IMG/VR virus record: IMGVR_UViG_3300028549_000507
Coordinates: 1-64,000 of that record
DNA length: 64,000 nt
DNA from: a virus
Lineage: Duplodnaviria; Caudoviricetes
Strand: one strand, 5' to 3'
Shown: piece after piece, positions 9,101 through 54,660 of the stretch
Layout: the number at the start of each line of letters is the position of its first letter
Numbering within the stretch: position 1 is the first letter of the stretch
The notes under the pieces: model-generated
Database searches by the model: none
The model's input: only the letters and a program-made list of their open reading frames with translations
What the model was told of the DNA's origin: nothing
Made by a program: the position numbers and the translations under genes

Positions 9101-9111
9101 TTGTACCATAG

Positions 9112-27108: not shown

Positions 27109-27369
27109 CTAACATTCAATTCCGTACGTTAGGAAGTACTGCATTTCGTGAAAGCTTCTCATAGCTTTCACTACTGATGGAATAGTTGAGACATACGTTT
27201 CAACGATATCCCATGATCCTGTTACTGGGTCGTGAAACATATCGGCCAGGCAGATGATATCATCTGAATTCTGGGGGTAGTTCCCAGAATACATCGTGGT
27301 GTGATTTTCAGATGACGTGGCTGTAACGAAATTTGAAAAGTCAGAATTGGTTTCGATAGTTCTTTTCAT
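27109..27369 (-). CDS. 86-aa cassette ORF with hairpin-dense coding sequence
   Basis: GGATCTATT-ATG start, family-C leader, stop next to a terminator. Confidence 0.7.
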   Translation of the reverse strand: MKRTIETNSDFSNFVTATSSENHTTMYSGNYPQNSDDIICLADMFHDPVTGSWDIVETYVSTIPSVVKAMRSFHEMQYFLTYGIEC

Positions 27370-27488
27370 AATAGATCCAATCCGGGCGTATTGTTCGCCC
27401 TATAATATAATTAATAGAAGGTAAGTTAACACTCGTTACTTCCTTCTTTGTTCACTATTAAATATACACATCAATAATCGTTTATTAC
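27370..27488 (-). promoter_or_regulatory. Early promoter plus family-C two-hairpin leader
   Basis: TATATTTAATAGT at 27454-27466; 57/58 nt identical to 54150-54207. Confidence 0.85.
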
Positions 27489-29406: not shown

Positions 29407-29438
29407 AAAAAAAAAGAGGAACCACCCTCTTTTTTTTT
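29407..29438. terminator. Bidirectional terminator
   Basis: A-tract-GAGG-AACCAC-CCTC-T-tract. Confidence 0.7.
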
Positions 29439-29907
29439 AGAATTCAAGATCCGGAAATTTCGAAGCATAATCCGCTTGAACGGAAAATGCTTCTATTTCA
29501 GAAGCTCTCTCATTGTATGGGAGAGCCGCTTCGCCCTTGATGGAATTTATACCATCAAGGGTTTGCATTTGGCGCGCATGAACTAATTCATGCACTATAA
29601 AATGCGAATAATTCCCAAGACGTCCGAATATATCGGCATTTTTTACGGCGTCGAATCCGCCGAAATCCAGTATTATGCACGCTTTACGTGTCACAAAACT
29701 AGATATACACATAAGTGCAAGAACATCCAAACCCAAACGGGTTGTAAATGTTTTTGCCGATGATGCCGCTACAGGCATAACAAACGTTTTAAACCCTTTT
29801 GGAAGACCGAGATCTTCCAAAATGGATTCAGGAACATTCACCCGTTTAGCTACGAGTGAATATATCGCTACTAATATAGTAGCGATAAGTCTTTCAAATT
29901 TCATCAT
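29437..29907 (-). CDS. Zinc metallopeptidase-like cassette protein
   Basis: HELVH (HExxH) plus a downstream EIEA third-ligand motif; hairpin-dense CDS. Confidence 0.7.
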   Translation of the reverse strand: MMKFERLIATILVAIYSLVAKRVNVPESILEDLGLPKGFKTFVMPVAASSAKTFTTRLGLDVLALMCISSFVTRKACIILDFGGFDAVKNADIFGRLGNYSHFIVHELVHARQMQTLDGINSIKGEAALPYNERASEIEAFSVQADYASKFPDLEF

Positions 29908-49618: not shown

Positions 49619-51241
49619 CTAGTTTATAATCTTTAAATAAAACTCTAAGATCTCATTAATAAGCTCTTCATCAGAGTGTTTTATGATATTACCGTTACGT
49701 GGATCTCCGAAATTATTATATACAAACTTATCGTTTGCAAGATGAATTACATCGTCTCGAATAAAGTCTTTCTTTTCAAAGAAACCTCTAATAAAACGAT
49801 ATTTTCCATCAACAATCTCAGTATATCTAGGATCTTCATAAAACTTTCTATCAGAGTTCTTTCCGCCCCATCGCTGTGTAAACGAATGTCCGACACAATT
49901 GGATGCGACATAATCTGCAAGAATATTAAACCCTTGTTTTCTCAAATACTTAATAGTAAGTATGAGTAATCTGACATAGTTATGTCTATTATTATCATAC
50001 ATATTATCAATCCCACCATAACTGTGTGAGAAGATGTTGAATATAGTTTTAGATTGCATATTATGAAGATATAGATTATTCATATAGAATAGATATTCTT
50101 CATACGAATCAATGAATACCCCATATCGAGCAGATATCTTACCAATCGTATCATCAGCAGTATATCGTCTAACGATTTTTAGCAATTCATCTGGACGAGC
50201 TATCTTATTCTCATGAATCTCTATCTCAGTCACAATGTTATCATCGCTACCGGTATTCTTATAATCGTCCCCAAACCCGTTCAAATGGTTATACCCATTA
50301 TCAGTTTGAGGCGTCCAAGTTGCCGATGTATTTTTGATAACTCCTAGAAGATATGATGCAGCTTTATCGACTGGTTCAATTACCGCAATAATCTTTGCAA
50401 GAACCTTAGAAAAGTTATTCTCAATCTCAGTATCAGTTGTAATACCTTTGATTGCCATATTGTCATACATCTTCTTGTGAACTTTTACAGAGTTCTTAAC
50501 GATCTTAGTCGTATATCTGTGTAGTTTATCAAGGATATCATTATCATATTTAAGAGTCAAAGACATTCTTTTAAACAACGCAATAGCCAGATCGTGGAAG
50601 AATTCTTTAGAATCAACTTCTCGGATCATGATATTACAATAATGAGTACAGATAGGAACGATAAGATTTGCGGCATATTTAACATGACACATACCTTTAA
50701 TATCCATATCGGTAAATGTCATATCCATGGAATGTTTATGTTTGGTTGAATCGATTAATTCATCCATACTTCCCATATATACTGAATCTACGTAATTGAA
50801 AATTATCTTAATAATGTTATCTGTTACAACATTCATAAGCTCATTTATAAATACAGGATAGGGGATCTTCGTAAGTTCTCCACCATCATCAATATCCATT
50901 TTCATAGATATTATATTAAGGATAAACTCTTCAGTGTCTCTTAATCCTTCATTATATTTGCGTTTAATCTTGTCGCCAGTATCAATATGAACAAATTGTT
51001 CTGTAAATGAATGGTTTAGAATTCGATTATTATTATCGACTATCAGAGCATTATATCTTTTGAATATACGTTTTGCCGATAGCGATACTCTGAAAGTATC
51101 ATATGGCTTAGCGAAATCGAAGAGTTTACTTACATCAATTGTAATATCTCCCGGACTATCTGTAGATAGTTTGAAGAAGTGCTTACCTTTGAAAGGCTTT
51201 TGCACAAACTCATACTTCTCTTTCTCAATATCTTCGCTCAT
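49619..51241 (-). CDS. Putative non-virion RNAP promoter-specificity subunit (AR9 gp226/phiKZ gp68-like)
   Basis: About 540 aa helical protein; ANLIVPICTHY recalls the IP-x-x-x-x-Y motif of this family; early-type upstream TATATTTACTA; start moved to MSEDIEK. Confidence 0.45.
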   Translation of the reverse strand: MSEDIEKEKYEFVQKPFKGKHFFKLSTDSPGDITIDVSKLFDFAKPYDTFRVSLSAKRIFKRYNALIVDNNNRILNHSFTEQFVHIDTGDKIKRKYNEGLRDTEEFILNIISMKMDIDDGGELTKIPYPVFINELMNVVTDNIIKIIFNYVDSVYMGSMDELIDSTKHKHSMDMTFTDMDIKGMCHVKYAANLIVPICTHYCNIMIREVDSKEFFHDLAIALFKRMSLTLKYDNDILDKLHRYTTKIVKNSVKVHKKMYDNMAIKGITTDTEIENNFSKVLAKIIAVIEPVDKAASYLLGVIKNTSATWTPQTDNGYNHLNGFGDDYKNTGSDDNIVTEIEIHENKIARPDELLKIVRRYTADDTIGKISARYGVFIDSYEEYLFYMNNLYLHNMQSKTIFNIFSHSYGGIDNMYDNNRHNYVRLLILTIKYLRKQGFNILADYVASNCVGHSFTQRWGGKNSDRKFYEDPRYTEIVDGKYRFIRGFFEKKDFIRDDVIHLANDKFVYNNFGDPRNGNIIKHSDEELINEILEFYLKIIN

Positions 51242-51304
51242 ACGTTCCCCAAAGTTAAAGTTATTCAAGTAGTAAATATATACTCATATACTCACTTTAA
51301 GATA

Positions 51305-53813: not shown

Positions 53814-53847
53814 AAAAAAAAAAGAAAGGCTTGCACCCTTTCTTTTT
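53814..53847. terminator. Bidirectional terminator
   Basis: A-tract-GAAAGG-CTTGCAC-CCTTTC-T-tract. Confidence 0.8.
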
Positions 53848-54106
53848 AACTCATACTCGCCATTACGCCGAGTATTGTCCCTGCAAGCACAGTGCTCGCC
53901 AGAACCGTGTTGAGTACGATCTTTTGAACACCTTTGACTTCCGACAACCCGTCGGAAGTTGAGAGCATCATGAGCGGGATGCTCATGATCGCCAGTGCAA
54001 GCGCGATTCCTATGGCAATATATGCCATAGGTTTAATCATCATAATCACCGCAACCGTAACAACAGTAACGATAATTTGAAGTGCTTCTTTTGTAGAATC
54101 TTTCAT
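53846..54106 (-). CDS. 86-aa membrane cassette protein with hairpin-dense CDS
   Basis: Two to three hydrophobic stretches; GGATTTATT-ATG; family-C leader. Confidence 0.7.
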   Translation of the reverse strand: MKDSTKEALQIIVTVVTVAVIMMIKPMAYIAIGIALALAIMSIPLMMLSTSDGLSEVKGVQKIVLNTVLASTVLAGTILGVMASMS

Positions 54107-54213
54107 AATAAATCCAATCCGGGCATATATTGTTTTGCCCTATAATTAATTAATAGAAGGTAAGTTAACATTCGTTACTTCCTTCTTTGTTCACTATTAA
54201 ATATACATATTAC
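54107..54213 (-). promoter_or_regulatory. Early promoter plus family-C two-hairpin leader
   Basis: TATATTTAATAGT at 54193-54205. Confidence 0.85.
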
Positions 54214-54245
54214 AAAAAAAAAGAGAGAGGGATTACTCCCTCCCT
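54214..54245 (-). terminator. Terminator, family T1
   Basis: AGGGAGGGA-GTAA-TCCCTCTCT plus T-tract. Confidence 0.85.
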
Positions 54246-54588: not shown

Positions 54589-54660
54589 AATATTCTCCGT
54601 TATTAAAGTATTATGGATGCATCTCGATTGAGATGCATCCTATTCATTATTAAATATATA
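54589..54660 (-). promoter_or_regulatory. Early promoter variant plus palindromic leader
   Basis: TATATTTAATAAT at 54646-54658, then GGATGCATCTC-AATC-GAGATGCATCC (11-bp stem). Confidence 0.8.

Follow-up and report, generated by a model that had tools for sequence, protein, structure and literature searches.

The locus that we describe here lies in the genome of an uncultured jumbo phage whose DNA was found in microbial-mat metagenomes. The window, by which term we refer to the whole 64,000-nucleotide stretch analysed, corresponds to the initial 64 kb of an IMG/VR record of 200,251 bp that is linear, has 33% GC, is about 72% complete, and contains two beta-like matches and one beta'-like match to RNA polymerase (RNAP). 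On the minus strand of this window, at positions 53846..54106, is ORF86, an open reading frame of 86 amino acids that forms the payload of a small gene cassette and is predicted to encode a membrane protein with three transmembrane (TM) segments. Directly downstream from ORF86 is a gene for the large subunit of topoisomerase II, which is closest (30%) to those of AR9 and PBS1, two jumbo phages of Bacillus. A tblastn search of 50,697 phage records with the ORF at 49619-51268 was negative.

ORF86 looks like a real ORFan gene for a membrane protein: T occupies position 2 in 47% of its codons, position 1 is purine-rich, the translation contains three hydrophobic helices, and the reading frame fills exactly the space between the leader and the terminator of its cassette. 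We found no homologues in PHROGs, Pfam, IMG/VR, or the metagenome contigs, by tblastn against phages, or in either a 5.8-billion word-indexed set or an exhaustive search of 1.8 billion representatives; and the search for a known membrane-protein family, whether holin or other, ended with 0 families and 0 homologues. The look-alikes in the Atlas were generic small multi-TM proteins, all of them scoring <0.9 and hence below the trust threshold, and the DNA of the locus had no match in the phage collection. An exact-protein look-up placed ORF86 on three further contigs; in both of those that were read the cassette was identical, as it also was in the contigs of run X2, a single allele being present across all the samples in which it was found. 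With respect to base composition, the preliminary description of this DNA had put the GC content of the ORF at about 46% and above that of its surroundings, and our count agrees, with 45.2% in the ORF versus 35.8% and 31.6% in the 500-nt flanks.

The cassette is ordered as a terminator/promoter composite, a leader with two hairpins, an SD-ATG junction, ORF86, and an intrinsic terminator, all on the minus strand. The composite begins with the intrinsic terminator of the upstream gene, ORF113 (54224..54245; a stem, a GUAA loop, and a T-run, conserved in the relatives L005 and L006 described below), and continues with the promoter core TATATTTAATAGTG (54192..54205), at which the identity with the relative stops. 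About 20 intergenic copies of this core occur genome-wide, mostly after the T-run of a terminator, and each stands ahead of a leader and a small ORF. The core resembles the early-promoter consensus of the AR9 virion RNAP (vRNAP), experimentally defined as AAATATATATTAT-N6-G (PMC5312081); by analogy we regard it as a candidate early promoter of the virion-RNAP type, and we infer that such a polymerase would use it. Within the leader, hairpin 1 (54155..54186) lies close to where the transcript is predicted to start, appears in the whole-transcript fold, and is near-identical in a paralogous leader at 27.4 kb, whereas hairpin 2 (54121..54140) reads GGGCA...TGCCC here versus GGGCG...CGCCC in the paralogous leader, which difference constitutes a compensatory A-T to G-C change. 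An SD-like GGAT, a TTATT spacer, and the ATG follow (54104..54115), and the same GGAT(N)TATTATG junction precedes unrelated ORFs in sister cassettes. The unit is closed by an intrinsic terminator with an 11-bp stem and a T-run (53819..53847) that overlaps the stop codon and at whose T-run the identity with the relative restarts. Within the composite, at 54206-54223, the ORF86 promoter lacks 12-14 nt of an upstream element (..TTGTAATAA-N-GATTATTGAT..) that the relatives and the sister promoters have, so that the conserved core alone is left; because those nucleotides are missing here, the -35-like TTGTAA is just a few bases from the core.

Inside ORF86 there are three perfect hairpins, each with a 9-bp stem and a 5-nt loop, and each lying exactly where the preliminary description had located it. 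Hairpin H1 (54009-54031; arms CCTATGGCA/TGCCATAGG) encodes PMAYIAIG and has a folding energy of -14.2 kcal/mol as RNA and -8.5 kcal/mol as DNA; H2 (53967-53989; arms ATCATGAGC/GCTCATGAT) encodes IMSIPLMM, with -12.0 and -8.2 kcal/mol, respectively; and H3 (53937-53959; arms ACTTCCGAC/GTCGGAAGT) encodes TSDGLSEV, with -13.2 and -9.2 kcal/mol. No stem is extendable past 9 bp, and all three start at codon position 1 on the minus strand, the spacings being 30 and 42 nt.

These hairpins are real and highly non-random, and chance does not explain them. When we counted perfect hairpins of at least 9 bp with loops of 3-8, the number per ORF86 was 0.0065 in codon-order shuffles and 0.068 in synonymous-codon permutations, which latter procedure preserves the protein; three stems were reached in 0/2000 shuffles of either kind, the maximum being one with the codon-order and two with the synonymous procedure. 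The comparison with codon-preserving shuffles, which had been proposed as a check on the hairpins, therefore came out in their favour. The folding energy of the ORF86 RNA leads in the same direction: the minimum free energy (MFE) is -97.8 kcal/mol, with a z of -5.8 when compared with dinucleotide shuffles, -6.2 with codon shuffles, and -4.7 with synonymous permutations. As to the identical geometry, which had been considered striking, the observation stands to the extent that the geometry is indeed seen three times, but its force is partly post hoc in that the sister cassettes vary: the uninterrupted stems in cassette genes measure 6-12 bp (mode 9), with none >12 bp, and the loops 3-8 nt (mode 4-5). 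Therefore, the 9-bp/5-nt arrangement represents the mode of a distribution and no separate rule.

We considered several familiar identities for the three hairpins. As intrinsic terminators they were absent from the terminator scan, and a T-run follows none of them on either strand. With regard to a dispersed palindromic repeat—REP, MITE, RPE-like, or CRISPR repeat—no recurring unit was present in the 200 kb: each 9-mer arm has at most one other copy in that length and never as a hairpin, there is no sequence common to the three stems, and their arms form no repeat family. The hairpin promoters of N4-type virion RNAPs have a 5-7-bp stem, a 3-nt loop, conserved bases, and a position upstream of the transcription start; H1-H3, with 9 bp, 5-nt loops, no common bases, and an intra-ORF location, do not answer to that description. 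A derivation of H1 from the leader CTATGGTAC box was likewise ruled out, since that box always comes after a T-run and H1 has none.

The transcript deduced for the whole cassette, from 54192 to 53810, has an MFE of -132.7 and a z of -8.4, and over its approximately 380 nt folds as a string of about 10 short stem-loops in which some 66% of the bases are paired; H1-H3 are the most regular members of that chain. The remaining members within ORF86 are imperfect and lie on the minus strand: one in the gene's 5' portion (54040..54080), which includes G-U pairs, is sense-strand-specific, and appears in both the MFE and the centroid structures, and two more in the 3' part (53853..53905).

Throughout the genome we counted 87 perfect hairpins of at least 9 bp, about 49 of them intergenic (mostly terminators) and 38 intragenic, with a codon-shuffle expectation of about 10 perfect stems per genome. 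The idea that cassette genes should be more structured than other genes held: the 17 genes that come first after the promoter motif, which total 6.8 kb, contain 13 perfect stems, or 1.9 per kb, versus 25 (0.137 per kb) in the other 183 kb of coding DNA, and their mean synonymous-permutation z is -2.83 versus -1.36 in the others (p = 0.002). Several sister payloads attain dinucleotide z values of -6 to -9, and ORF77, at 194 kb, contains two perfect stems. The packing with hairpins is thus a class feature of the swappable early cassettes in this lineage.

Some of the individual genes deserve mention on their own account. No other coding sequence in the genome is as structured as ORF156 (29437-29907), with synonymous z values of -6.8 and -6.3 and a dinucleotide z of -9.3; this cassette-borne gene encodes an HExxH motif, gave no homologues in our searches, and has three perfect stems of 10-11 bp. 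Three perfect stems, one of 9 bp and two of 11 bp, also occur in a 62-aa ORF at 186066-186254 of the genome, which has a good SD, lies behind a copy of the promoter motif at 186326, and has a dinucleotide z of about -9. The last 1.25 kb of the record (199000-200251) has 44.5% GC and several strongly structured ORFs with synonymous z values of -5.5 to -6.1; there is no promoter motif within 260 nt of those ORFs, at a point where the record ends and the context is incomplete.

Relatives of 92-95% identity align with our phage on both sides of the cassette: L006, on a contig of run X5, and L005, on a JGI contig. In both of them the segment 53822-54192 is replaced by approximately 400 unrelated bases that comprise a leader of a different family and a 96-aa ORF with a single TM segment, the identity ending at the end of the promoter core and resuming at the T-run of the terminator; in a third relative the slot is occupied by a gene of 178 aa. 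The 96-aa payload, although unrelated to ORF86, is also hairpin-rich, with a z of -3.7 and two 9-bp/5-nt stems. The ORF86 unit is, then, an exchangeable, self-contained module of the PeSL type. A further IMG/VR relative, whose topoisomerase is 55% identical, starts within the gene for that enzyme and is without the locus, and a second metagenome scan with ORF113 as the query gave no match.

The promoter-early stem-loops, or PeSLs, are mobile regulatory cassettes of T4-type phages in which a composite of terminator stem-loop and early promoter, repeated genome-wide, flanks small genes that are mostly ORFans, and close relatives differ by the replacement of a gene between two such composites (PMC2839356, PMC4122927); their promoters are sigma-70-like, and promoter and terminator function has experimental backing there. 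The unit described here shares with them the composite itself, in which the terminator at 54224-54245 is followed by the promoter core at 54192-54205, the recurrence of that core in about 20 copies, and the replacement of the gene between composites in L005 and L006, with breakpoints at the core and the T-run. The differences are nevertheless several. The present genome is not T4-type, in that it has multisubunit RNAP genes and a topoisomerase closest to those of AR9/PBS1; the conserved core, a predicted promoter, exceeds a sigma-70 -10 element in length and is similar to the early consensus of the AR9 vRNAP; hairpin leaders are reused among the cassettes, with the ATG as the point of junction to the payload; and hairpin-filled payloads are outside the PeSL description, those of the T4-type phage RB49 lacking such hairpins.

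Comparison with other systems leads to similarly partial resemblances. The morons of lambdoid phages are autonomous promoter-gene-terminator units of deviant base composition, and the ORF86 cassette is likewise a stand-alone transcription unit between core genes with a GC content above that of its flanks. Unlike in a moron, however, the excess GC at third codon positions (GC3) is located in base-paired positions rather than evenly spread, which concentration argues against a purely foreign composition, and the frame of promoter and leader is repeated and phage-specific. Among the known mRNA-stabilizing stem-loops are the ompA-type 5' hairpins, the REP and intercistronic 3' hairpins, and the RNase III sites of T7 early mRNA, all of them sequence-independent and located in untranslated or intercistronic RNA; the cassette resembles these in having a leader hairpin close to the 5' end and a terminator hairpin at the 3' end, but differs in that its stems are spread along the coding sequence, where ribosomes have to unwind them. 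Finally, AR9 and PBS1 have a long, AT-rich, conserved promoter element before many early genes and two sets of multisubunit RNAPs (Lavysh et al., 2017; PMC5312081). The present genome has its own multisubunit RNAP genes and a long, AT-rich, highly conserved element upstream of many cassette genes, whereas the AR9 early genes are without intragenic hairpin enrichment and the identity of the topoisomerase with that of AR9 is just 30%.

The statement on intragenic hairpins in AR9 derives from the application of the identical pipeline to three reference phages: AR9 (150 kb, with annotated early promoters), phiKZ (1-50 kb), and RB49 (1-50 kb). In AR9 the early-first genes and the others had 0.159 versus 0.163 stems per kb and z values of -0.73 versus -0.44, which differences were not significant, and the general explanation that early genes of a vRNAP are structured was accordingly not borne out in that phage. 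The early region of phiKZ (1-50 kb) gave a mean z of -0.82 with no clustered stems, and did not bear out the notion that the early genes of nucleus-forming phages are structured; nor did RB49 (1-50 kb), the archetypal PeSL phage, bear out the same notion for PeSL payloads, the mean z of its small genes and payloads being -1.0 and no gene having two or more stems. Since none of the three displays the enrichment, the tiling is unexplained by vRNAP early transcription, by a phage nucleus, or by the PeSL architecture: it is particular to this lineage. The preliminary description had suggested that the stems might protect early mRNA that is uncoupled from translation, and as a general rule that proposal was not supported, there being no enrichment in either the experimentally mapped vRNAP early genes of AR9 or the phiKZ early region. 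Isolated examples do occur in AR9 despite the lack of a class-wide enrichment: gp086 (NC_031039.1, 72178-72570), which comes first after an annotated early promoter, contains two perfect hairpins of at least 9 bp. The mean synonymous z of the non-cassette genes in our genome (-1.36) is similar to that of phiKZ (-1.1) and lower than those of RB49 (-0.65) and AR9 (-0.44).

Whether the stems act in RNA or in DNA is a question that H1-H3 alone cannot decide because perfect Watson-Crick palindromes are symmetric. The sense z is lower than the antisense z in 10 of 12 structured genes, with a mean difference of 0.9; for ORF86 the two values are -5.8 and -4.75. The conserved neighbour ORF113, which has imperfect stems only, yields whole-ORF z values of -3.7 and -3.0 in the two strains (60 permutations), with -5.6 in its first tile (20 permutations). 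Between those strains ORF113 has 23 substitutions, of which 9 are in paired bases, although the paired bases make up 61% of the total; and 5 of those 9 keep the pair, four of them by giving G-U and one by turning G-U into A-U. Because all five of the pair-keeping changes involve G-U, the pairing is preserved solely in the sense RNA. The ORF113 leader hairpin (54615-54640; L005:4949-4974) is a perfect 11-bp stem in both strains, reading GGATGCATCTC in the window and GGACGCATCTC in L005, each with a matching 3' arm, so that a compensatory T-A to C-G change separates the two, along with a loop of AATC versus GATT; such pairing-preserving changes in the leaders point to selection on pairing in those cassette RNAs. 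In addition, GC3 in the cassette genes is 0.42 at paired versus 0.26 at unpaired positions (0.30 versus 0.22 in other genes), and the RBS windows of the cassette transcripts are more open than the rest (0.44 versus 0.37, p = 0.0035), albeit that of ORF86 is no more open than its remaining transcript (0.32 versus 0.35). The G-U-containing stems in cassette genes, for their part, number 17 in the sense versus 14 in the antisense strand, and the stem excess is strongest among pure Watson-Crick stems. Taken together these data lean slightly towards the sense RNA as the acting level.

The reading that we tentatively favour, and that we would call plausible without going so far as to call it probable, is that an mRNA composed of about 10 stem-loops stabilizes a small early message or insulates it, with template switching as a possible origin of the perfect stems. 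The stems would act in the sense mRNA as an armour that is independent of sequence and that leaves few long single-stranded AU-rich stretches, so that factors dependent on single strands—endonucleases of the RNase E/Y type and possibly Rho or RNA-guided defences—would have less access; a short early message covered by few ribosomes would thereby live longer. The ceiling of about 12 bp may keep the stems below the length cut by enzymes of the RNase III type. The perfection of the stems suggests that they are young, and they may have been made by intra-strand template switching during replication. The action in RNA, the benefit through stabilization, the RNase III ceiling, and the template-switch origin are proposals, whereas the non-random stems, their enrichment across the cassette genes, the covariation of the leader hairpins, and the exchange of the cassette in a relative are shown. 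To our knowledge, folding z values of -6 to -9 are normally encountered only in dedicated structural RNAs; here such values mark a class of small, fast-swapping early genes and are absent from AR9, phiKZ, and RB49. Functional stems would mean that message stability or the evasion of defences can be written by a phage into the reading frames of its accessory genes, and a simple design rule for stable short mRNAs would follow.

If, alternatively, the stems had no function, they could be a mutational by-product of template switches by the replisome that persists in weakly constrained ORFans and is purged from conserved genes, which explanation we judge somewhat unlikely, though it merits serious attention. 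Hairpins reportedly arise through short template-switch mutations in the evolution of rRNA and miRNA, and a one-step perfect inverted repeat with a short spacer would explain mismatch-free stems in young sequences; the reported case, however, concerns rRNA and miRNA, whereas ours concerns phage coding cassettes. The facts that H1-H3 contain neither G-U pairs nor mismatches, that the perfect-stem payloads searched (ORF86 and ORF156) have no homologues, that the conserved ORF113 has only imperfect stems, and that the excess is largest for pure Watson-Crick stems, with counts free of sense-strand bias, are all in accord with such an origin. A pure by-product would fit less well with an ORF113 that, though conserved, is still strongly structured in two strains and whose substitutions avoid or preserve pairs, with the covariation of the leader hairpins, with the presence of two unrelated payloads, both hairpin-rich, in one slot, or with the concentration of the additional GC3 in paired positions. 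Should the stems prove mutational after all, the cassettes would illustrate clearly how new genes are shaped by template switching in nature.

A further reading, which we hold to be unlikely, is that the tiling is an adaptation specific to this lineage: the messages would be born structured through template switching and would then be selected, either to resist single-strand-dependent attack by RNases, Rho, or RNA-guided type III/VI CRISPR, or to be recognized for handling around a nucleus-like compartment. If that were true, the tiling would amount to a novel level of phage mRNA design, overlaid on genes that are ORFans.

More doubtful still, in our estimation, is a role at the level of DNA, in which palindromes extruded from single-stranded or supercoiled DNA would serve recombination or cassette mobility, replication priming, or the binding of structure-specific proteins. 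The palindromes are indeed perfect, the cassette has demonstrably been exchanged between strains, and the antisense z of ORF86 is nearly as low as the sense value; but the exchange breakpoints are in the promoter core and the terminator, away from the internal stems, and the hairpin energies as DNA, with 5-nt loops, come to merely -8 to -9 kcal/mol. Stems of 9 bp with 5-nt loops are, moreover, short for cruciform extrusion. The GC skew has no inflection near 54 kb, on which ground a replication origin there was rejected; the arms belong to no repeat family; and the sister genes have both G-U-dependent stems and G-U-preserving substitutions.

That the hairpins are specific RNA tags—serving in packaging, in export from a nucleus-like compartment or sorting around it, in recognition by an RNA-binding protein of the phage, or as decoys for an RNA-sensing defence—appears to us quite improbable: the repetition of the 9-bp/5-nt geometry three times in ORF86, with two further cases in the relative's unrelated payload, would suit a tag, but there is no common loop or stem sequence, the geometry within the class ranges over 6-12 bp and 3-8 nt, and the early region of phiKZ is without such tiling. 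Lastly, a structured ncRNA overlapping or replacing a fortuitous ORF, an overlapping one having been envisaged at the outset, might be imagined from the z of the transcript, its degree of pairing, its own promoter and terminator, and the lack of homologues of the ORF, yet we give this explanation almost no credence in view of the absence of any Rfam 15 match even at E <= 10 with sub-threshold scores (best 27 bits versus gathering values of 56-80, in unrelated families), the absence of a tRNA or tmRNA at the locus by ARAGORN, the exact span of the ORF from leader to terminator, the SD-ATG junction common to other cassettes, the strong codon periodicity with three hydrophobic helices, and the HExxH motif in the sister payload ORF156.

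Whichever explanation of the stems applies, the modular shuffling of the PeSL type is extended by this locus to a lineage with its own multisubunit RNAPs. With respect to the leaders of these modules, a T-run followed by CTATGGTAC recurs 18-27 nt 5' of the ATG, at positions 9111, 16237, 27966, 43212, and 62726 of the window and at 200240 of the genome, always on the minus strand, and could be a second regulatory or processing signal. The cassettes at 27109-27466 and 53846-54205, moreover, have near-identical leaders that end in ATGAAA and are followed by unrelated 86-aa ORFs, the one other than ORF86 being at 27109-27369; the exchange of payloads therefore apparently takes place at the start codon as well.
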